25,586 nucleotides of DNA from a virus. The position numbers and the translations under genes are program-made. The notes under the pieces are model-generated. The model saw only the letters and a program-made list of their open reading frames with translations, was not told the DNA's origin and did not search any database. Within the stretch, counting starts at the first letter, position 1. The number at the start of each line of letters is the position of its first letter. The DNA is taken from the UHGV virus genome UHGV-0108017. One strand, given 5' to 3'. Shown piece by piece: positions 1-25,586 of the stretch.

Positions 1-54
1 CATATTGGTCATAGCGCTATCCTTCACGGCTGCATTATATAAAGAGGTAAATCA

Positions 55-67
55 TTTGATACTGCTG
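55..67 (+). repeat. left-end repeat copy 1 (TTTGATACTGCTG), candidate transposase-binding site L1
   Basis: 13-bp motif recurs at 159-171 and 201-213 in direct orientation; followed by AAAAATCCGGG, reminiscent of the Mu L1 region as recalled. Confidence 0.5.
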
Positions 68-158
68 AAAAATCCGGGAGGAAAGTGGATCAAACGGGAT
101 TTGATGGGATAAAACAAACAGTTATGACGTAAAACAGTGTTATGCGCACAACATGTGA

Positions 159-171
159 TTTGATACTACTG
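159..171 (+). repeat. left-end repeat copy 2 (TTTGATACTACTG), candidate transposase-binding site L2
   Basis: Exact 13-mer shared with 201-213; 104 bp from copy 1, close to the Mu L1-L2 spacing as recalled. Confidence 0.5.
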
Positions 172-200
172 TCGCAAAGAAAGCTAAAAACGAAAAAATA

Positions 201-213
201 TTTGATACTACTG
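201..213 (+). repeat. left-end repeat copy 3 (TTTGATACTACTG), candidate transposase-binding site L3
   Basis: Exact 13-mer identical to copy 2; 42 bp downstream of it, close to the Mu L2-L3 spacing as recalled. Confidence 0.5.
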
Positions 214-239
214 ATTTCTGCGATTTTAACGTTTTAAAC

Positions 240-281
240 AGGTTAAAAAACCAGCCGCGGGCTATTGGAATTAGCCCGCCT
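240..281 (-). terminator. putative rho-independent terminator of the repressor transcript
   Basis: 8-bp stem GCGGGCTA (257-264) / TAGCCCGC (272-279) with 7-nt loop; on the minus-strand RNA the hairpin is followed by a UUUUUU run (plus-strand A-run 245-250). Stem overlaps the stop codon at 271-273. Confidence 0.45.
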
Positions 282-855
282 TCGATTCTAAACTACTTGA
301 GAGTTTATCGCTTTCAATTTCTGCCAAAATCTCTCTAACTCTTTCATCCGATAAATGATCTAAAAGTAGAGCTGCTGCACGTTTTCGTCCTTCAAGTTGG
401 ATTAGTTCTTGATTCTCTGGTTCAAGTAACCGTGACAAGTACTTAGCTCCATTTAGCGCGAGGATTTTTGATAATCGCTCTGCCTCTGATGCTTCTAAAG
501 CACTTAGTATAGCAAGAAGGCGCTGTAGCGTTATATCTAGGGGCAATTGGACGTTTTCATCTATTTTAGGTGATATTGGTTCTATATCCTCCTTGCCAAA
601 AACAAGCCAATCAATGCTCACCCCTTCTGCAAAAGCAATCTGACCAGCTACTTGTAGAGATGGTGTCGCATCTTTCTCAAAGTAGTTGTTAAGTGTTGAG
701 AACGGTAGCCCCCACGCCTTCGCCACGGCAGTCTTGGAGCGCCCGCGCATTAACATGGCTAGGCGCTCTTTAATGCTTTCTTTTTGAAACACAGGAAAAG
801 AAAAATCACTTTCTTTTTCAGTGCTTCTTTCTTTTCTGTTAACTATATGATTCAT
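271..855 (-). CDS. prophage repressor (Mu c-like by position), HTH DNA-binding protein
   Basis: Only leftward gene, divergent from ner at the left end. Start taken at ATG 853-855 (MNHIVNRKER...); the ORF-track start at 906 is a GTG. HTH-like segment SKTAVAKAWGLPFSTLNNYF. GC much lower than the rest of the window. Confidence 0.6.
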   Translation of the reverse strand: MNHIVNRKERSTEKESDFSFPVFQKESIKERLAMLMRGRSKTAVAKAWGLPFSTLNNYFEKDATPSLQVAGQIAFAEGVSIDWLVFGKEDIEPISPKIDENVQLPLDITLQRLLAILSALEASEAERLSKILALNGAKYLSRLLEPENQELIQLEGRKRAAALLLDHLSDERVREILAEIESDKLSSSLESKAG

Positions 856-995
856 AAAGAAATATCCTTTTGTAGATAAAAACCACCAAAGAAAGAGATA
901 AAACACCTTTACTTTTCTTTTGTAGTGATCAAATATTTATATGTAGAGATTATCCGGCGGTGTTATCCGCGCAGATAACTTTTAAGGATAAACGA
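856..995. promoter_or_regulatory. divergent early promoter / operator region between repressor and ner
   Basis: Repeated TGTAG(A/T)GAT motifs (871-879, 921-929, 942-950), 18-bp near-palindrome GTTATCCGCGCAGATAAC (962-979), IHF-like GATCAAATATTTA (927-939). Confidence 0.55.
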
Positions 996-1232
996 ATGAT
1001 GTCTATAAATGAAGTTGTTAAACAGGACTGGCACCCCGCGCATGTTGTCGCGGCGGTGCATGTAAAAGGTTTTACTTTACGCTCTCTGTCCATTGAAGCC
1101 GGTTTAAACCAGGATTCTTTAAAGAATGCCCTGTACCGCAAATGCCCAAAATATGAGCGCATTATTGCTGATGCTATTGGTGTTGCTCCGGAGGAGATCT
1201 GGCCCAGCCGTTACGCTCGTAAGGTGGTATAA
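996..1232 (+). CDS. ner: Ner-like DNA-binding early regulator
   Basis: ATG 996 with AAGGA 8 nt upstream. Recognisable Ner/Nlp signature (DWHPAHVVAA...GFTLRSLS...IIADAIGVAPEEIWPSRY). Stop overlaps the RBS of A. Confidence 0.8.
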   Translation: MMSINEVVKQDWHPAHVVAAVHVKGFTLRSLSIEAGLNQDSLKNALYRKCPKYERIIADAIGVAPEEIWPSRYARKVV

Positions 1233-1234
1233 AA

Positions 1235-3322
1235 ATGTTTGTATCAGTTAATGAGCTTGTAGGGCTACCAGGTATGCCGGGAACTGCGCAAGGGGTGCGG
1301 TATTCCATAAGGAAACTGGCCTCATCTGAGCATTTCAGGCGCAAACGTGCGGGTTCAAAAACCATTGAATACAGCATCGACTGCCTCCCTCCGATTACAC
1401 AACGGGCGTTACGTGAGCGACATGTAGCTCAACTGATGGCAAGCGCCCCGCAGGAGATAACTACCCAGCCTCCTGTAAAGCGTGAACGCAAACAAAATGT
1501 TGTACAGCCTGTTGAGGCATATCGCGGTTCGCCACAATTGGTAGAAGAGCGTCTGAATGCGCTTACGGAAAATCAACGTAAAGTTGCAGAAGCGCGCATT
1601 GCTCTTGTCTGTGAAGTTCTACGAATTAGCCAGGAGCCGGGATTCAGTTGTGCCAGCGCTATACGTTTTATTGTGTCGCGGTTAGCACAGGGTAACCTGG
1701 AAGAACGCCTGGAATCTTTGGTCATTACTGCTAATGCCCGTAAAGGAAAAGAGCGAACTCTGAGCGCAATTACGCTCAAACGTTGGATAGCTGCGTTTAA
1801 CAAAGCACAGAATGCCGCAGAACGACTGCTGTTACTGGCACCAGGAAAGCGCGACGAAATAAAACCGGAAGAAATTAGCTGGCTGCCTGAATTTCTGGCG
1901 CAGTATCGTCAGGCTAACGGCAGGCCTATGTCTGAAGCCTATGAGGATTTTGTCGCTGATTGGCAGCGTCGCCATGCGGACGAACCATACATGCTGGAGG
2001 TGATGCCTTCCTATGATGTTGTCCGGTATGCCATGAAAAAACTGCCGGAAGTGGTGAAACAAAAAGGGCGCGTTACCGGCAGTGAATACCGTCAGCTTGA
2101 AGGATTCACCCGCCGCGACTGGACAGCTATGCCGGTGAATTATGTCTGGATTGGTGACGGTCACGGTATGAAGCTGAAATGTGCGCATCCGGTTCACGGG
2201 CGTCCATTTTCACCGGAAGTTACGTTTGTGATCGACGGTGGAACCCGGTTTGTGGTTGGCTGGAGTCTTGATCTTGCGGAGAACGTGTTCGCTGTTGCCG
2301 GGGCGATACAACACGGCATTCGCAATCATGGAAAACCATTCCTGTATTACTCGGATAATGGTTCCGGTGAAACGGCAGATATGCTGGATAAAGAGATCGT
2401 CGGGATTCTGCCCCGTCTGGGGATTAACCACCCCACCGGTATTGCGGGAAATCCGCAGGGACGCGGCATTATTGAACGCCTGAACCGAACATTACCGATG
2501 CGTATAGCCAGGAGGTATCGCACCTATTTCGGCAAGGGTGCTGACCGGGAATCGTTGCGAGTACTTAATCGTGATCTGCGTTCAGCGTTTAATGCCCTGC
2601 AACAGGACAAGCCACTGAGCGCCCGTCAGAAAGCCGCAATGCGCGAGCTGCCGTCCTGGTCAGAACTGATTGAGGCTATCCGTGAGGGGGTGGAGTGGTA
2701 CAACAACCGCCCACATTCTGAATTGCCGATGAAACCAAACGGAAAGCATTACAGCCCGGCAGAGTTCAGAAAAAAACGCTTAGCGGAAGAAGACACTGAA
2801 ATTGAGTGGCTGAGTGATCTTGAGCTGCGCGACATGTTCCGCCCGATGGTGGAGCGTCCGGTAAGACGCTGCGAAATCCAGTGGCTGAACAATATTTACT
2901 ACGCGCCAGAGCTGCGTGATGAACATGGTCGCAAAGTACTTATCAGCTATGACATTCACGATGCCGAGCGAATTACGGTACGCCGTAAGGACGGTAGCTT
3001 TATCTGTGAGGCGATATGGAACGGCAATAAACGCGCAGCCTTTCCTGTCACGGCTGAATATCACAAACAACAGCAGCGTATTAAAGGCATGCGCAAGCGT
3101 GCTGAGGAAAAAATTCGTGATGCAGAGGATGAAGGTATTCAGATTCTGGAACACAAACAGGCTGAACCCTGGCTGGATAATGTTTATCGCCCGGTTGGTA
3201 ATACGGTAACCATCCGGCAACAGGATTATGAGGAAGATTACGACGAAGATTATGAACGCGATTTCAGGCTGGGTTTGCAAAAACTTGCAGCCATACAGGA
3301 ACAGGATGATCCGCTGGCCTGA
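1235..3322 (+). CDS. A: DDE transposase (MuA-like)
   Basis: 695 aa immediately after ner. N-terminal winged-helix-like region resembling MuA; candidate catalytic residues D308 (WIGDGH), D375 (YYSDNGSGE), E414 (IIERLNR) by inspection. Confidence 0.85.
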   Translation: MFVSVNELVGLPGMPGTAQGVRYSIRKLASSEHFRRKRAGSKTIEYSIDCLPPITQRALRERHVAQLMASAPQEITTQPPVKRERKQNVVQPVEAYRGSPQLVEERLNALTENQRKVAEARIALVCEVLRISQEPGFSCASAIRFIVSRLAQGNLEERLESLVITANARKGKERTLSAITLKRWIAAFNKAQNAAERLLLLAPGKRDEIKPEEISWLPEFLAQYRQANGRPMSEAYEDFVADWQRRHADEPYMLEVMPSYDVVRYAMKKLPEVVKQKGRVTGSEYRQLEGFTRRDWTAMPVNYVWIGDGHGMKLKCAHPVHGRPFSPEVTFVIDGGTRFVVGWSLDLAENVFAVAGAIQHGIRNHGKPFLYYSDNGSGETADMLDKEIVGILPRLGINHPTGIAGNPQGRGIIERLNRTLPMRIARRYRTYFGKGADRESLRVLNRDLRSAFNALQQDKPLSARQKAAMRELPSWSELIEAIREGVEWYNNRPHSELPMKPNGKHYSPAEFRKKRLAEEDTEIEWLSDLELRDMFRPMVERPVRRCEIQWLNNIYYAPELRDEHGRKVLISYDIHDAERITVRRKDGSFICEAIWNGNKRAAFPVTAEYHKQQQRIKGMRKRAEEKIRDAEDEGIQILEHKQAEPWLDNVYRPVGNTVTIRQQDYEEDYDEDYERDFRLGLQKLAAIQEQDDPLA

Positions 3323-3323
3323 A

Positions 3324-3360
3324 TAAAAAACAGTCCGCGGGAACGGACTGTTAAGTAAAG
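3324..3360 (-). terminator. hairpin between A and B; intrinsic-terminator geometry on the minus strand only
   Basis: Perfect 8-bp stem ACAGTCCG (3330-3337) / CGGACTGT (3344-3351), 6-nt loop; preceded on + by AAAAAA, so the minus-strand RNA has hairpin then U-run. No U-tract on the + strand. Confidence 0.4.
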
Positions 3361-3394
3361 GAAACAAAGCTGATTTGAATAAACGGAGAATAAT

Positions 3395-4327
3395 ATGACC
3401 GATATTAATGATGTTTTCAACACAATTAATGCGCTGATTACTGACGGTGTAAAAACACAAAGCGCTATCGCCAAAGAAGCTGGCGTGTCGGAGGCCACTC
3501 TTTCTGAACTTCGCAAAGGCCGTTACAAAGGCGATACCGAAGGGATGCACAACAAATTACTGATGTGGCATCAGGGCTGGCAGAAAAGTCTGGAGTTGCC
3601 CGGCACCCCACAACTTGTGGAAACACAGACCCTGCGTGATTTGCGTGAACTTTTTCAGACAGTGCGTGTTATGGGGTGTATCAGCGTTCTGGTGGGTGTG
3701 CCGGGGGTAGGAAAAACCGTTGCGGCCCGTGAATACAGTAACCGCGTATCTAATACCTGGATGGTAACCCTTTCCCCTGCACACTCAACGGTGACGGAAT
3801 GTCTGCTGGAACTGGCAGACGCGCTGGGAATTGATAACCCGCAAAGGAATAAAGGCGCGCTGACCCGTGCCATTCGCAAAAAACTGAACGGTACACGCGG
3901 TCTGGTGATTGTGGATGAAGCTGACCACCTGAGCATTGACGGGCTGGAACAATTACGTGCCATTCAGGATGCCACCGGAGTCGGGATGGTATTGATTGGT
4001 AACCCCAGTCAGTTAGCCAAAGCCACACATCGGGGAACGGATGACCTTGCACGTTTGTTCAGTCGTTTCGCCAGGACAAAGCAACTACGTAAAGCCAAAA
4101 AGGCTGACGTGGTGGCAATTGCGAAAGCCTGGGGCATTGAGGGCGAAGATGAATTATCACTCATGCAGAGCATCGCGGAAAAGCCAGGCGCATTGCGTGT
4201 ATTAACTCACACGCTGAATCAGGCGTGGCTGGCAGCCAGCGGGAAAGGCGTTCCTCTGTCCAAAGGCTACATAAAAGCGGCTTTTAAAGAGGTTTACAGC
4301 AACCCGAAATTACTGAACTGGTGGTAA
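3395..4327 (+). CDS. B: transposition ATPase / target DNA activator (MuB-like, AAA+)
   Basis: 310 aa; Walker A GVPGVGKT (K107) and Walker B LVIVDEADHL seen in translation; N-terminal HTH-like region; sits directly after A as in Mu. Confidence 0.85.
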   Translation: MTDINDVFNTINALITDGVKTQSAIAKEAGVSEATLSELRKGRYKGDTEGMHNKLLMWHQGWQKSLELPGTPQLVETQTLRDLRELFQTVRVMGCISVLVGVPGVGKTVAAREYSNRVSNTWMVTLSPAHSTVTECLLELADALGIDNPQRNKGALTRAIRKKLNGTRGLVIVDEADHLSIDGLEQLRAIQDATGVGMVLIGNPSQLAKATHRGTDDLARLFSRFARTKQLRKAKKADVVAIAKAWGIEGEDELSLMQSIAEKPGALRVLTHTLNQAWLAASGKGVPLSKGYIKAAFKEVYSNPKLLNWW

Positions 4328-4341
4328 GGGGATAATAAATA

Positions 4342-4569
4342 ATGATGTCACGAAATATAAAAATGGCAACGGATGCGCAGAACTGGTTACAGGCGCGCGG
4401 GAGTCATGTAAATGAATCATATCTCGGCGTGGCGCGTCCGATTCTTGAAATCACTTACCCACCGGTGGAACTGGTAAAAAACGCGGTCAGAATTATGGAG
4501 CATAAGTCCGGGGTGGCCCGTTCTGTATGGACGGCCCGTTTTAATGGTTGCCAGATAATCTGGAGATAG
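4342..4569 (+). CDS. hypothetical early protein (at the position of kil in Mu)
   Basis: 75-aa ORF with AAGGGG RBS, immediately after B; AT-rich relative to flanking genes. No recognisable motif. Confidence 0.5.
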
Positions 4570-4576
4570 CATTTAA

Positions 4577-4789
4577 ATGATGGTGATAAATATTCACGAT
4601 AATCTGGGAATCAGTAAGTTAATCAACCTTGATAATGTCAGTGTAATGGAAACGACTGTTGAGGGCGGTATTGCTTTTGAATTTATTGATGGTCACCGGC
4701 TGGTCGTTCATGTCGGCAACCATCATCACGCAGAAGATGTGTTTTGGGAACTTAACAAAATCACAAATGCAACACCCGTTAATCAATAA
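4577..4789 (+). CDS. hypothetical early protein
   Basis: 70-aa ORF, tandem ATG start, tightly packed in the early operon; AT-rich; His-rich patch HVGNHHHAED. Confidence 0.45.
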   Translation: MMVINIHDNLGISKLINLDNVSVMETTVEGGIAFEFIDGHRLVVHVGNHHHAEDVFWELNKITNATPVNQ

Positions 4790-4796
4790 GCAGGTA

Positions 4797-5072
4797 ATGA
4801 AAATGGCAAAAGTAATCTTTGAATTTAACAATACAAGAAATATTGAGTTTCAGGATAATGGAGGTTTTGCCGTAAATATGAATGTGCGACTGGAAGAATC
4901 CTCACCTGAGGACCAGACCGGGCCACATGATGTAATGGCAGGCATCATCAAGAGCATGGCTCCTGAAATCATTAAAAAAGCGACCGAGGAGTTGTTGAAA
5001 TCAGCCAGGGAGCTTGGGCTGGAAGCCGAGGGGGAATTATTCAGCTATAACCCGAATGCAGCCAGACATTAA
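4797..5072 (+). CDS. hypothetical early protein
   Basis: Start chosen at ATG 4797 (or 4803) after the stop of the previous gene; the ORF-track entry 4659 overlaps the previous gene. Acidic C-terminal half. Confidence 0.45.
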   Translation: MKMAKVIFEFNNTRNIEFQDNGGFAVNMNVRLEESSPEDQTGPHDVMAGIIKSMAPEIIKKATEELLKSARELGLEAEGELFSYNPNAARH

Positions 5073-5092
5073 TTCACAAAGGAACGCTGACA

Positions 5093-5831: not shown

Positions 5832-6356
5832 ATGGCTAAACCAGCAAAACGCATCAAAAGTGCCGCAGCGGCTTATGTGCCACAAAACCGCGATGCGGTG
5901 ATTACCGATATTAAACGCATCGGGGATTTACAGCGCGAAGCATCACGTCTGGAAACGGAAATGAATGATGCCATCGCGGAAATTACGGAGAAATTTGCAG
6001 CCCGGATTGCACCGATTAAAACCGATATTGAAACCCTTTCAAAAGGCGTTCAGGGATGGTGTGAAGCGAACCGCGACGAACTGACGAACGGCGGCAAAGT
6101 GAAGACGGCGAATCTTGTCACCGGTGATGTATCGTGGCGGGTCCGTCCACCATCAGTAAGTATTCGTGGTATGGATGCAGTGATGGAAACGCTGGAGCGT
6201 CTTGGCCTGCAACGCTTTATTCGCACGAAGCAGGAAATCAACAAGGAGGCGATTTTACTGGAGCCAAAAGCGGTCGCAGGTGTTGCCGGAATTACGGTTA
6301 AATCGGGAATTGAAGATTTTTCCATTATTCCGTTTGAACAGGAAGCCGGTATTTAA
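5832..6356 (+). CDS. gam: Gam, host-nuclease inhibitor (Ku-like DNA end-binding protein)
   Basis: 174 aa; translation (MAKPAKRIKSAAAAYVPQNRDAVITDIKRIG...) matches Mu Gam as I recall it, essentially end to end; AGGAG RBS 9 nt upstream. Confidence 0.85.
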   Translation: MAKPAKRIKSAAAAYVPQNRDAVITDIKRIGDLQREASRLETEMNDAIAEITEKFAARIAPIKTDIETLSKGVQGWCEANRDELTNGGKVKTANLVTGDVSWRVRPPSVSIRGMDAVMETLERLGLQRFIRTKQEINKEAILLEPKAVAGVAGITVKSGIEDFSIIPFEQEAGI

Positions 6357-6454: not shown

Positions 6455-6994
6455 ATGGTTGATGCAAAAATTCTGAATGGTGTCAGCACATTATTACGGG
6501 CTTACGGACGCCTGACCTGTGGAGTTCTGGCTGAAAAAATGAATATGCTGCCCTCGTCAATGGTGTATTTCCTGCGTGATGCGGTTGATGCCGGAGTGCT
6601 CACCGAATGCAACGGATTTTATGACGTACCGCGTCCCCGTACAGAGCAGCCTGTAAGACGAAACGCAACTGAGCAGCCTGCTGTTGATGATGCGGTGTGG
6701 TGCAACTGGCGTCGCTCATTACCCTGGGTGGAAGGTAATACCATCCCTGCGCTGGCAAAAGAGTTTGCGACGGGCGTGCTGACCTGTGAGTCAGTCCACA
6801 TTGTTGCTGAGGTGGATAACAGAATGTGCGAACAGGGAATGCCCCGTTTTGTGATGGCTTATATCGATATCCGGCTGGGGCGTTTTATTTGCAGTTCAAG
6901 CGCCTGGAATATCACCGACCATGTACTGCGTTATCTCATCATTGATTTTTCATCAGCACCGGGTGTGGTGCAGGAGGCTGGTTGTGAAATTTGA
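6455..6994 (+). CDS. hypothetical early protein, possible winged-helix N-terminus
   Basis: 179 aa; AGAGGA RBS 7 nt upstream; N-terminal LLRAYGRLTCGVLAEKMNMLPSSMVYFLRDAVDAGVLTE is wHTH-like by eye. Confidence 0.5.
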   Translation: MVDAKILNGVSTLLRAYGRLTCGVLAEKMNMLPSSMVYFLRDAVDAGVLTECNGFYDVPRPRTEQPVRRNATEQPAVDDAVWCNWRRSLPWVEGNTIPALAKEFATGVLTCESVHIVAEVDNRMCEQGMPRFVMAYIDIRLGRFICSSSAWNITDHVLRYLIIDFSSAPGVVQEAGCEI

Positions 6995-7688
6995 AGACTG
7001 GGGTATTGATAAAAGTTGTGGCCGGGACGTCCTGGTGTACAAAAGCTGTAGCGTGATTGAAGGAGAAGATGCCTGGCAGGTTCTGGATATACTTCGTTCT
7101 GCTTTATGCAGAGCTGGCTATGTTACGCCAGCGTCAGTTAATGGCGGAACTGCCACTACCTGTATCAGAAAGCAACTTTATAGTTTTTATACAGCCTACA
7201 ACCGATGGTTAAAGAATGGGGCAATGGAGACGGGCGATGATGTATTTACCCGGGCTGCCGGATTATGTGCCAATGCTTACGATTATTTTGAATCAACCGG
7301 TGCAGACAGTGAAGCCGCATTAGAACAATTACATGCGGACTTTATCTCAGCAGGGCTGAATGAGAAATTGCCATTTAACCGGGACAGCAAACATTACAGA
7401 AACGAAAGCAAATTGGCCAGATGCCACCAGAATTCAGCACGTGTGGCATGGGTTGAAAAACACTGTATTAGTTCTGATTCAGAAATAACGGGGAAAAAGA
7501 CAGTCGGTGAAACATCGTATTCGTGGCTGGGGAAATTTACCACGGTGAAACAGGAATGCCCGACCTGCGGTAATGAATCCCCTGAATATCTGAAAGAGTG
7601 TCCCCATTGTGGCGGGCAGAAATGCAACCACTGTGATATGGGCGATGACACGGCGTGCATGAATTGTGAAGGTGAACAGAATGAATAA
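6984..7688 (+). CDS. hypothetical protein with C-terminal 4x CxxC zinc-ribbon cluster
   Basis: Start proposed at GTG 6984, 6 nt after AGGAGG (6972-6977); the ORF track extends to 6921 inside the upstream gene. C-terminus CPTCGN...CPHCGGQKCNHCD...CMNCEGE. Confidence 0.5.
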   Translation: MKFEDWGIDKSCGRDVLVYKSCSVIEGEDAWQVLDILRSALCRAGYVTPASVNGGTATTCIRKQLYSFYTAYNRWLKNGAMETGDDVFTRAAGLCANAYDYFESTGADSEAALEQLHADFISAGLNEKLPFNRDSKHYRNESKLARCHQNSARVAWVEKHCISSDSEITGKKTVGETSYSWLGKFTTVKQECPTCGNESPEYLKECPHCGGQKCNHCDMGDDTACMNCEGEQNE

Positions 7689-7989
7689 TGGCGTATTTAC
7701 AAAATCCGAGGAACTGACAGCGTTGTTGACGGCGGCTGGTTTTCCTGAAGATGTGATCGGTAACTTTGTGGCGGCGGTATATGCCCCGTCTTATAACCGT
7801 GCAATTGATGAGGTCATGGCGTACCGACTCGGCATTGTTGCTGAGTCACTGAGTCCTCACTGGATTATTGAAAATCTCCGCGCTATTGCTGATGGCAACG
7901 ATAAATCAGCAGCCGTTGCTGCACTGGATGTGTTACGGCAAATGAGTCTGAAATTTTATCCTGAATTTATTCTGAGGGCCGCAAAATGA
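7681..7989 (+). CDS. hypothetical early protein
   Basis: ATG 7681 overlaps the upstream stop; the ORF-track start 7666 is a GTG. 102 aa, no recognisable motif. Confidence 0.45.
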   Translation: MNNGVFTKSEELTALLTAAGFPEDVIGNFVAAVYAPSYNRAIDEVMAYRLGIVAESLSPHWIIENLRAIADGNDKSAAVAALDVLRQMSLKFYPEFILRAAK

Positions 7990-9308: not shown

Positions 9309-9354
9309 CGCCCTCAATATCCTGTGATGAATAACCGTACCGGGGGAAATCATC

Positions 9355-9573
9355 ATGGGTAAAGGCTGGAATGCATCCTTTCATCTTGGCAGACGTGAGC
9401 GGCTGCGTCAGGAGGTTTTGCACCGTGTCGCCGGTGGGCCACGGCCTGCGCCCCGCGACTATACCGGTCATGATGGCACCCACGGCAGTTATTACATGAA
9501 AGGCTGGCAGTCAGTTGATATGCCGGAAATTCTTCATCATTGCCTGCTTTACAGGGAGAAACATGATGTCTGA
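9355..9573 (+). CDS. questionable small ORF at the start of the middle region
   Basis: 72-aa ORF with an odd composition; may be non-coding if the middle promoter lies here. Confidence 0.25.
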   Translation: MGKGWNASFHLGRRERLRQEVLHRVAGGPRPAPRDYTGHDGTHGSYYMKGWQSVDMPEILHHCLLYREKHDV

Positions 9574-9928
9574 GCGTTCTGCTCGTCAGTGGCCTGATTT
9601 TTTATCGGTGGTGTTACTGGCGCTGTTATTGTGGATAAGTCTGTTTTGTGGCTGGCGCGCGCTGATGTTTTGCTGTGCCTCGGTTTTCAGTGTTGCTTTA
9701 TGTGTTGCCGGTGATTGTCTGGATGCGCTGATAATGAGCTGCCGGGTGCCTGAACATTTTGCCCGGTTCGTCTGGCCTCTGACCTGGCTGGGGAGTCTGT
9801 CCGGGCTGGGATTAGCCGTGATGGCAACGTCTCAACTGAAAACGGGTCCTGAGCATGTCATCTGGGCGCTGGCCGGATTGCTGACGTTCTGGCTCTCCTT
9901 TCGTTTTCGCGCTCGTCTGTTCGGGTAA
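9563..9928 (+). CDS. predicted multi-pass membrane protein (middle operon)
   Basis: ATG 9563 with GGGAG RBS; hydrophobic segments LSVVLLALLLWISLFCGW, VFSVALCVAG, LGLAVMATS, VIWALAGLLTFWL; Cys-rich. Confidence 0.5.
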   Translation: MMSERSARQWPDFLSVVLLALLLWISLFCGWRALMFCCASVFSVALCVAGDCLDALIMSCRVPEHFARFVWPLTWLGSLSGLGLAVMATSQLKTGPEHVIWALAGLLTFWLSFRFRARLFG

Positions 9929-9937
9929 AGGGGCACC

Positions 9938-24237: not shown

Positions 24238-25586
24238 ATGACCGGGAAACGCTTAAAGGCGTCTGTCATTATTGACCTTAATGGCAATCTTTCCCGGCGT
24301 TCCCGCCAGTATTCGAACCAGATAAACGCCCTGTCCCGTAGCGGGCAAAGTTCCCTGCGTGCCCTGCGTATGGAGGTTGTGCGCGTTTCTGGTGCCATTG
24401 ACAGAATGGGTTCACTGTCAACCCGTACATTCCGAATGCTGTCAGCCGGGGCGCTGGGTATCGCTGGTGTGGGTTACACCGCCAATAAACTGTTTATTGG
24501 TGCAGCCGCCCAGCGTGAGCAGCAAATTATCGCCATGAACTCGCTGTATCACGGCGATAAGGTCAGAGCGCAGGCCATGATGGCCTGGGCGAAGCAGAAC
24601 GCGAAGGACACCACGTGGGGGCTGAGTGGTGTTCTGGATGAGATCCGTTCGTCGAAAGGCTTCGGCATGACGGATGAACAGACGAAACAGTTCATCACCA
24701 TGTTGCAGGATCAGGGGGCCATGCACGGCTGGGATTTACCCACTGCACAGGGTGCCTCACTGCAACTGAAACAGATGTTTGCCCGCCAGCAAATCACGGC
24801 GGCGGATGCCAACCTGCTGACCGGTTACGGTATCAACGTTTATCAGGCGCTGGCGGATGCAACGGGAACGGACGTTAAAAAAATCCGTGATCTGGGTACA
24901 AAGGGCAAGCTGGGCATGAAATCCATTCTGACGGTATTCAGAACGCTGTCAGAACAGTCAAAAGGTGCACAGGCCAGTGCGATGAACTCCTGGGACGGGA
25001 TGTTCGCCCAGATGGAAGCTAACCTGCTTGAATTTCGCATAAAGGTGGCAAACAGCGGCCCCTTTGAAGAAATCAAGAACGAGATGCGCCGGGTGCTTAA
25101 CTGGCACGACATGGCGGATAAATCCGGGGAACTTGACGCACTGGCAGAAAACATTGGTCAGAAATTTCTGACCACGTTCAGAACGGTAAAAATCGCGGCG
25201 CAGGAATTATGGCGCTGGCTGAAACCGGGTAAAGATGCGCTGGCATGGGTTGACCAGAATATTGTCAGCCTGAAAAAACTGGCTGCTGTTCTGGTGTCTG
25301 TCTGGCTTGCCAATAAAGCCCTGAGAGCAGGCTGGGCTGTGGCAAAACCCTCATGGCAGGTTGCCAGTTATCCGTTTAAAACCGGACGTCGTATGTGGCG
25401 CTGGATGCGGAACCGCAAACGTGGGCAGGCAGGTCTGCCGGTCCCGGATGCCATGACGTCTGAGACGCTGTTGCAGGGTATCGGCATTCAGCGTGTGTTT
25501 GTCATCAACTGGCCCCGTGGATTTGGTGGCTACGGGAGTGGCGGCGGTCGTCGCGGACGGAGCGGCAGAAGAATGGCCCCGCTGTT
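24238..25586 (+). CDS. N: tail tape-measure protein, 5' partial (continues past window end)
   Basis: ATG 24238; open frame with no stop to the window end (about 449 codons); helical Ala/Gln/Leu-rich composition, internal hydrophobic segment, Gly/Arg-rich stretch at the end. Not in the ORF track because it has no stop. Confidence 0.75.
   Translation, partial: MTGKRLKASVIIDLNGNLSRRSRQYSNQINALSRSGQSSLRALRMEVVRVSGAIDRMGSLSTRTFRMLSAGALGIAGVGYTANKLFIGAAAQREQQIIAMNSLYHGDKVRAQAMMAWAKQNAKDTTWGLSGVLDEIRSSKGFGMTDEQTKQFITMLQDQGAMHGWDLPTAQGASLQLKQMFARQQITAADANLLTGYGINVYQALADATGTDVKKIRDLGTKGKLGMKSILTVFRTLSEQSKGAQASAMNSWDGMFAQMEANLLEFRIKVANSGPFEEIKNEMRRVLNWHDMADKSGELDALAENIGQKFLTTFRTVKIAAQELWRWLKPGKDALAWVDQNIVSLKKLAAVLVSVWLANKALRAGWAVAKPSWQVASYPFKTGRRMWRWMRNRKRGQAGLPVPDAMTSETLLQGIGIQRVFVINWPRGFGGYGSGGGRRGRSGRRMAPL

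Follow-up and report, generated by a model that had tools for sequence, protein, structure and literature searches.

The window analysed here, the whole 25,586-nucleotide (nt) stretch of virus genome UHGV-0108017, comprises the left two thirds of a Mu-like transposable prophage in E. coli and ends in the tail region. Its genes follow the order known from Mu: c on the minus strand, then ner, A, B, kil, small early genes, gam, gemA, mor and the late genes. Comparison with Mu (NC_000929), D108 (NC_013594) and related prophages indicates that the element is very probably a recombinant of two lineages, in which a cassette consisting of the left end (attL), the repressor gene c, ner, the transposase gene A and the ATPase gene B derives from a non-Mu lineage, and everything from kil on is of Mu type. 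An initial annotation, made from the sequence alone, had proposed that Mu-like lineages recombined at a point between B and gam; this proposal is borne out, with the breakpoint at 4351-4396, inside kil. The exchanged unit exceeds A and B, as it takes in attL, c and ner (38-1232) as well.

Identity to Mu along the genome and the left crossover

Searches with megablast and blastn against a phage collection, Mu, D108 and Yersinia phage vB_YpM_6 revealed two sharply different parts of the window. From 4330 to 25586, a few small patches aside, DNA identity to Mu and D108 is 97-98%, whereas 38-4329 (attL, c, ner, A and B) has no detectable DNA similarity to Mu; with 11-nt words, blastn found no match to 1-4329 in Mu or D108. 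Set against the species-level Mu backbone (Muvirus mu), the match covers about 77% of the first 25 kb. Identity drops as a step and not as a gradient, so chance is no concern.

4342..4569, plus strand: kil, the first Mu-type gene, 97% identical to Kil of Mu and D108
4351..4396, plus strand: crossover interval, 46 nt identical in the window, Mu and the TD225-C4 prophage, within kil codons 4-18
5832..6356, plus strand: gam, 174 amino acids (aa), 174/174 identical to Gam of Mu, D108 and vB_YpM_6

Pairwise BLASTP against the Mu proteins gave 22.0% identity for A (over 717 columns), 44.1% for B (over 299), 46.9% for Ner and 27.5% for c, the last over 69 residues only, and then 97.3% for Kil, 95.7% for gp8, 99.0% for gp9, 98.4% for GemA and 99.2% for Mor. 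The initial annotation had described A and B as clearly unlike those of Mu and Gam as matching essentially residue for residue, and both statements are correct: identity is far from uniform across A, B and gam. The ORF positions of the three genes agree with those that it gave.

Mu DNA similarity begins at 4330, 3 nt past the B stop codon. A three-way alignment of the window, Mu and the TD225-C4 prophage allowed the junction to be narrowed by informative sites: non-Mu bases persist in the window through kil codon 3 (TCA, 4348-4350), and Mu bases follow from 4397. Homologous recombination in a brief segment near the beginning of kil, common to both lineages, would leave such a pattern and is the probable origin of the left junction.

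A single crossover between B and gam would be insufficient, because in the relatives the Mu interior, from kil to mom, is flanked by two foreign ends. Every relative with a complete prophage carries a matching non-Mu right end (attR), and divergence from Mu at that end starts immediately past the mom stop codon. These relatives, 96-98% identical to the window, point to a second exchange at the mom stop codon, outside the window, which would leave both ends with sites that the new A can bind. The matching right end of the source would terminate in ...GCGCGCTTTA, with a flank starting ATTA.

Left-end modular exchange is expected in Mu-like phages, and in this respect the finding itself changes little. 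D108, which is not known to differ from Mu outside c, ner and the N-terminal portion of A, is the classical precedent of left-end mosaicism in the Mu group. According to its annotation, D108 has retained the core of MuA as well as MuB and end sites of Mu type, whereas in the window the whole of A and B and, judging by its relatives, the sites of both ends are replaced. The element is an ordinary phage mosaic of known kinds of part, and its sequences are already public, including those of isolated phages.

Relatives and occurrence of the cassette

The finished chromosomes of E. coli strains 1290 and S6 contain the same kind of hybrid, 96% identical to the window over 37-4568 and 98% in the late region, with their own-type B followed by Mu-type kil. 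It is thus extremely unlikely that the junction is an assembly chimera of two prophages in one sample. The exact A is also on record from metagenome-type sources (jgi, ena), where chimeras occur, but an identical A stands in a 279-kb E. coli contig at NCBI as well, and lineage-specific bases lie on both sides of the junction within a single gene.

In E. coli TD225-C4, the cassette (89% DNA identity over 36-4563; A 95%, B 70% at the amino acid level) is part of a Mu-like prophage of 34 kb, which outside the cassette resembles the window at only 64-86%. An Sp18-like prophage of O157:H7 has A at 79% and B at 70%. Both carry the same end type and c/ner, their own-type B and a 4-bp target duplication, and their structural and late genes are distant (64-86% DNA identity or less). 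The cassette seems to be at home in such lineages of enterobacterial Mu-like prophages, of which the Sp18-like one is the more distant representative.

In tblastn searches, A shares 98% identity with its counterpart in vB_YpM_5 over residues 1-661, 57% with that of Yersinia phage Tongde, 43% with that of Haemophilus phage SuMu, 42% with that of a Klebsiella phage and about 31% with those of Pseudomonas D3112/DMS3-like phages. All of these are nearer than MuA (22%), which argues against the view that A, B, c and attL diverged in place, without recombination, by accelerated evolution. Such divergence would accommodate the gene order identical to that of Mu and the full-length collinearity of B (44%) and Ner (47%). 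It is nevertheless hardly credible: identity falls from 97% to undetectable within a few nucleotides, the same cassette at 89% sits in a backbone that is 64-86% like the window, and silent-site saturation in 4 kb beside 98% identity in 21 kb is incompatible with a single history.

Yersinia phages vB_YpM_5 and vB_YpM_6 (MT374853/4) and the E. coli RM8082 prophage combine a Mu backbone and the same attR sites with the non-Mu attL, c, ner and A core (residues 1 to about 660), which are 98% identical to those of the window. They differ from it in having the last 28 residues of MuA and a Mu-type B (44%). The two phages form plaques and lysogenise, and their published description does not mention a transposase replacement (PMC10434027).

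Among 5,426 complete E. coli genomes, the A-core type occurs in 246, of which 232 are at 80-90% identity, and Mu's own left 4.3 kb in 94. The window's allele of the A tail and B is present in nine, at no more than 93.4%. Over 38-3211, identity to relatives is 96-98%.

Several points weigh against the recombinant reading or limit its detail. The window ends at 25586, so that its own attR and right target duplication lie outside the view and the second exchange is read from the 96-98% relatives. There is no exact parent (3212-4329 at 93.4%; TD225-C4 at 89%), and only the type of the donor can be given. Homology and insertion footprints are the grounds for expecting A to bind the end repeats, to contact B and to be catalytically active. 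Finally, the exchange may have run either way, a Mu interior having entered a foreign chassis or a foreign cassette having entered Mu.

Transposase A belongs to a family in which MuA is the apparent outlier

The product of A shows the domain order of MuA, namely an I-alpha helix-turn-helix (HTH), a DDE core and a beta-barrel, followed by a flexible tail that bears a helix at its end.

1235..3322, plus strand: transposase A, 695 aa; best Foldseek match the MuA transpososome, 4fcy
residues 1-61, plus strand: N-terminal I-alpha-like HTH; Pfam HTH_Tnp_Mu_1, 29.1 bits (cut-off 23.3)
D308 (nt 2156-2158), D374 (2354-2356) and E414 (2474-2476), plus strand: DDE triad, from alignments
residues 532-592, plus strand: beta-barrel; Pfam Mu-transpos_C, 66.8 bits (cut-off 21.7)
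residues 634-669, plus strand: disordered acidic linker in the AlphaFold2 (AF2) model
residues 671-689, plus strand: C-terminal helix in the AF2 model; the chain ends ...DDPLA

BLASTP aligned D308 (WIGDGH) with D269 of MuA and D374 (YYSDNGSG) with D336. In phmmer comparisons, the motifs DNGS (D374) and ERLNR (E414) aligned with DNGS and ERANR of Rous sarcoma virus (RSV) integrase, which we take to be its second catalytic Asp and its Glu.

To place these residues in a family context, we used an exhaustive HMMER search, which yielded 1,606 clusters (50% identity) related to A, and aligned the window A with 77 diverse representatives (78 sequences). The 120 proteins listed by a word-indexed search with A were all 94% or more identical to it and so of no use for a deep alignment. 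D308, D374 and E414 are invariant in all 78 aligned members, and 74 of the 78, including the window (D374-E414), show a distance of 40 between second Asp and Glu, as compared with 56 in MuA (D336-E392). A distance of 40 is, on this alignment, a family trait, and MuA is the outlier, apparently carrying an insertion. The initial annotation had measured the spacing from D375 to E414; its claim that the spacing is shorter than in MuA stands, while the second Asp is D374, which makes the distance 40, with 39 residues between.

The family profile recovered solved structures of MuA (4fcy, E 1.4e-24) and TnsB (E 2.5e-16). Its alignment with MuA is interrupted precisely in the interval from second Asp to Glu, whereas across the same segment (YsDnGsG...GvIEr) it is continuous in ShCAST TnsB and in the RSV and avian sarcoma virus (ASV) integrases. 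The spacing of the window A is integrase-like. TnsB and the retroviral integrases nonetheless have N-terminal DNA-binding domains of their own, lack I-alpha and a MuB_C-type partner, and are not phage replication enzymes.

Structure prediction for A, which the initial annotation had suggested as a check of the catalytic core, returned the Mu transpososome as the best match. The AF2 model, built on the family alignment, has a mean predicted local distance difference test score of 87.5; Foldseek placed 4fcy_A first (E 3e-19), followed by Tn7/CAST TnsB, and matched 1bco with a template modelling score (target) of 0.63. A structure search with the single sequence of A matched I-alpha and integrases and did not reach the MuA core. 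The N-terminus matched I-alpha (PDB 1tns) with E 7e-5 as a single sequence and 1.8e-12 as a profile. For the MuA-specific Pfam families DDE_2 (PF02914) and HTH_Tnp_Mu_2 (PF09039), the window A gave no hit at E <= 0.01, as against 453 and 163 bits for MuA; in PHROGs, both proteins fall in phrog_310 (window A, E 6e-201), the family of transposable-phage DDE transposases within the MuA/TnsB superfamily.

By this homology, A would assemble a Mu-like transpososome in which D308, D374 and E414 carry out cleavage and strand transfer. The insertion footprints of relatives described below are consistent with such activity.

End sites of a second type

The left end of the prophage carries a repeat architecture of its own.

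38..270, plus strand: attL of non-Mu type, terminus 5'-TATAAAGAGG; three direct repeats, the presumed A-binding sites
49-68, 153-172 and 195-214, plus strand: attL repeats L1, L2 and L3, core TTTGATACYRCTG, spacing 104 and 42
68..112, plus strand: Mu-homology island between L1 and L2, matching Mu 25-69 at 37/45 positions (82%)

The attL motif has three copies with no mismatch; with up to one mismatch, the whole window holds five, against 0.21 expected by chance. Counted from the terminus, its cores are at 18, 122 and 164 nt, compared with 16, 121 and 161 for the Mu consensus cores, and in relatives the inverted right-end motif lies at 18, 40 and 75 nt, Mu's being at 16 and 38. Both systems thus have three transposase sites per end in near-equal geometry. 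The sites themselves differ: those of Mu and D108 are of CGAAA type (Mu consensus ...RAARYRCGAAAR; termini TG...CA), and the window has the TTTGATAC core. A scan of viral contigs for the attR sequence yielded only four loci, not enough to extend the comparison of target duplications.

Sites of the window's type were found at both ends in all six elements read (vB_YpM_6, 1290, S6, RM8082, TD225-C4 and O157 Show KS 470-1). Since ends with matching sites co-occur with the A type, the A core appears to go with both sets of end sites. In the mechanism that we propose, A would bind three such sites per end in a Mu-like arrangement, with L1, a 104-nt step, L2, a 42-nt step and L3 on the left and R1-R3 close together on the right.

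For the island at 68-112, the next-best diagonal reaches 24/45 and 200 shuffles reach at most 28; the rest of attL is unalignable to Mu. The island is also present in Tongde and TD225-C4 and is absent from the Sp18-like prophage. We considered that it might be a pac site retained together with Mu's terminase and rejected the idea: the supposed position of pac was not confirmed, and the correlation was unsupportive, as the Sp18-like small terminase is closer to that of Mu (57%) without the island, and TD225-C4 (47%) has it.

Insertion footprints of relatives

Prophages at different chromosomal sites show that the window-type element runs from 5'-TAT(A/G)(A/G)AGAGGTAAATCATTTGATAC to GTATCAAATGATTTTGCGCGCTTTA-3', with 11 nt between the terminus and the AAATCATTTGATAC site at both ends. 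The window itself starts with TA at the left (junction 34-40) and its relatives end ...CTTTA; the Sp18-like prophage starts with TG and not TA (TGT...CTATA).

1..37, no strand: host DNA of E. coli flanking the prophage on its left; relatives at other chromosomal sites begin aligning at window 36-38
strain 1290, in ydcO: target duplication GTGA
strain S6, in ydcV/patD: target duplication TTAA
RM8082: target duplication CGAA
vB_YpM_6 record: target duplication ATTC
TD225-C4, in rlmB: target duplication GATA
Sp18-like prophage, in betT: target duplication CAAC

The last four nucleotides of the host flank, ATTA, are presumed to be the left copy of the window's own duplication. About 2,400 E. coli genomes match the window at 99% or above, which we infer to reflect the 36-nt host flank only.

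A 4-bp duplication was found in six of six insertions, and four of them are not readable as 5 bp. Parsings with 5 bp were tried and rejected, as they fit none of these four and the empty ydcO shows exactly GTGA duplicated: the uninterrupted ydcO of strain S6 reads cagactGTGAgcaaacg, so the duplication is exactly 4 bp. Applied to a Mu prophage in E. coli W, the same procedure returned 5 bp (GCCGC). A 2021 survey of transposable prophages gives 5-bp duplications for Mu and 6-bp duplications for B3, and describes TG...CA ends as conserved in Mu- and B3-like phages until TA-TA ends were found in Leptospira (PMC8705779). In a limited literature search, neither 4-bp duplications nor TA termini turned up as a described trait of Mu-like phages of enterobacteria.

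Compared with Mu, the element has A at 22% identity, other sites and TA and not CA termini, with a 4-bp and not 5-bp duplication in its relatives. DNA cutting by the replacement transposase seems to differ from that by MuA. The 4-bp and TA behaviour is read from the genome footprints of relatives, and it might be the only part to surprise a Mu specialist. We put at slightly under even the chance that this is an undescribed functional variant of the Mu machine, with different sites, a 3'-TA in place of the near-universal CA, a 4-bp stagger in place of 5 bp, and a module commoner than Mu's own. If the 4-bp and TA behaviour is true, it would offer a second tractable E. coli system for the study of target stagger and terminal-nucleotide preference, and could serve as the basis of an orthogonal mini-transposon tool free of cross-reaction with Mu ends.

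Relatives with intact open reading frames (ORFs) are inserted in or at ydcO, ydcV/patD, an epimerase gene adjoining ybjT, rlmB, glpT, tyrR and betT, and every insertion checked is bordered by a target duplication. This bears on whether the cassette is a dead remnant in an inactive prophage, its mosaic structure being without functional meaning. The activity of this particular copy is read from its sequence, and its right end lies beyond the window; still, a dead remnant is improbable. None of the four genes is truncated or disrupted, database copies of A match it at 100%, the catalytic residues and Walker motifs are preserved, near-identical prophages stand at different loci with clean duplications, and phages with the same A core form plaques.

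The A tail and B as a joint module

Downstream of the A core, the window and its relatives fall into two groups defined by the end of A and the type of B.

3212..3322, plus strand: C-terminal tail of A, from about residue 660 to 695, which presumably interacts with B and forms a mosaic unit with it
3395..4327, plus strand: B, a MuB-type AAA+ ATPase, 310 aa, 44% identical to MuB over 299 aa; phrog_296
residues 101-108, nt 3695-3718, plus strand: B Walker A, GVPGVGKT, aligning with MuB GNPGVGKT
residues 170-179, nt 3902-3931, plus strand: B Walker B, LVIVDEADHL, aligning with MuB LVIIDEADHL
residues 223-299, plus strand: MuB_C domain of B; Pfam Phage-MuB_C, 84 bits (cut-off 25); AAA_22 also matched
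3329..3352, plus strand: hairpin in the A-B spacer, 9-bp stem

B has the features of a MuB-type activator: it contains Walker A and B motifs and the C-terminal DNA-binding domain known from MuB, and its gene immediately follows A. MuB has the same motifs and domain and falls in the same PHROGs family. The initial annotation had seen MuA- and MuB-like architecture and motifs in A and B, and the alignments agree with it. Among phage sequences, the closest match to B comes from a Mu-like element residing within Stx phages (70%), as against 44% for Mu.

In vB_YpM_6 and RM8082, 98% identity to the window continues through nt 3211 (about A residue 660), after which the tail switches: A ends DDEYETERDEYLNHSLDILEQNRRKKAI, the last 28 residues of MuA, and B is of Mu type, 312 aa long and related to the window B as MuB is (44%). 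Tongde, with A at 56-57%, likewise has a Mu-type tail (...RRKKVI) and a B of 312 aa that is 99.7% identical to MuB. The window A ends ...QEQDDPLA, compared with ...RRKKAI in MuA, and a tail ending in DPLA accompanies an own-type B (310-316 aa) in the window, 1290, S6, TD225-C4 and the Sp18-like prophage.

These combinations indicate that the A tail and B are inherited together as a modular unit. This fits the contacts of the C-terminal domain of MuA, which binds MuB and ClpX. The tail helix of A would thus engage the ATPase B for target capture. Since vB_YpM_5/6 are viable, plaque-forming and lysogenising, the tail alone appears to couple the foreign core to MuB, and about 28 C-terminal MuA residues are suggested to be enough; the hybrids would then illustrate a modular cassette whose A core works with a Mu tail and MuB. 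The pattern amounts to a natural domain swap, with the core inherited with both end-site sets, the A tail with B, and everything from kil to mom freely exchangeable.

The tail-and-B segment (3212-4329) is also the most variable part of the cassette. Its best match in the complete E. coli genomes is the 93.4% given above, and TD225-C4 has A at 95% and B at 70%, which suggests that B with the tail has been exchanged, or evolves faster, relative to the A core. The same unevenness bears on the number of events behind the recombinant. Two separate events, attL-c-ner-A first and the A tail, B and attR later, stand somewhat below an even chance beside one double crossover of the 32-kb interior. Two events would explain why 38-3211 reaches 96-98% where 3212-4329 stays at or below 93.4%, why TD225-C4 differs so much between A and B, and why hybrids with the first part only exist (vB_YpM_5/6, RM8082). 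Such a history would refine the two-lineage recombinant and not replace it, and the order and number of events are irrecoverable from the genomes compared.

Two minor features lie close to the tail. The residues D-P-L-A-COOH (window nt 3299-3319) end the own-type tails of the window, TD225-C4 and the Sp18-like prophage; speculatively, this end may be an alternative, ssrA-like unfoldase signal. The A-B spacer measures 72 nt in the window and 38 nt in Mu, and its hairpin (RNA fold -15.8 kcal/mol, z -3.3, equalled by none of 200 shuffles) is terminator-like on the minus strand only. The hairpin may tune the A:B expression ratio.

Repressor c and Ner

The regulatory genes of the cassette were compared with those of Mu and vB_YpM_6.

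257..279, no strand: terminator-like hairpin near c
271..855, minus strand: repressor c, 194 aa; Pfam Phage_CI_repr and HTH_3 DNA-binding domain; phrog_3037
residues 109-184, minus strand: C-terminal part of c, phrog_7148; residues 113-179 align with Mu c at 28%
996..1232, plus strand: ner homologue, 78 aa; Pfam HTH_35, E 3e-25; 47% identical to Mu Ner and 100% to that of vB_YpM_6

The window c is 99% identical to the vB_YpM_6 protein and joins a DNA-binding domain of lambda-CI/HTH_3 type to a Mu-c-like C-terminal part. In Mu, the repressor resembles the N-terminus of MuA (42% identical over 52 residues, E 7e-14), whereas a pairwise comparison of the window c with the N-terminus of the window A revealed no similarity. 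The competition for operator and enhancer through a shared domain, as in Mu, therefore does not hold in this form here.

Mosaic patches in the Mu-type region

Within the Mu-type region, the profile is interrupted by patches at 4569-5077, 6978-7509, 7691-7982 and about 9326-9934. In the first of these, the gp6 homologue (4577-4789) has no match in Mu, D108 or vB_YpM_6, and gp7 (4803-5072) is of D108 type, 98% identical to D108 as against 22% to Mu; gp8 is 100% identical to that of D108, and some parts of the window are thus nearer to D108 than they are to Mu. An additional ORF at 7666-7989 is common to the window and vB_YpM_6. DNA similarity to Mu is absent from 6978-7509, and a 255-aa ORF (6921-7688) stands in place of Mu gp12/gp13. 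The C-terminus of this ORF product carries many CxxC pairs (CPTCG...CPHCGGQKCNHC...CMNCEG) and looks like a zinc ribbon.

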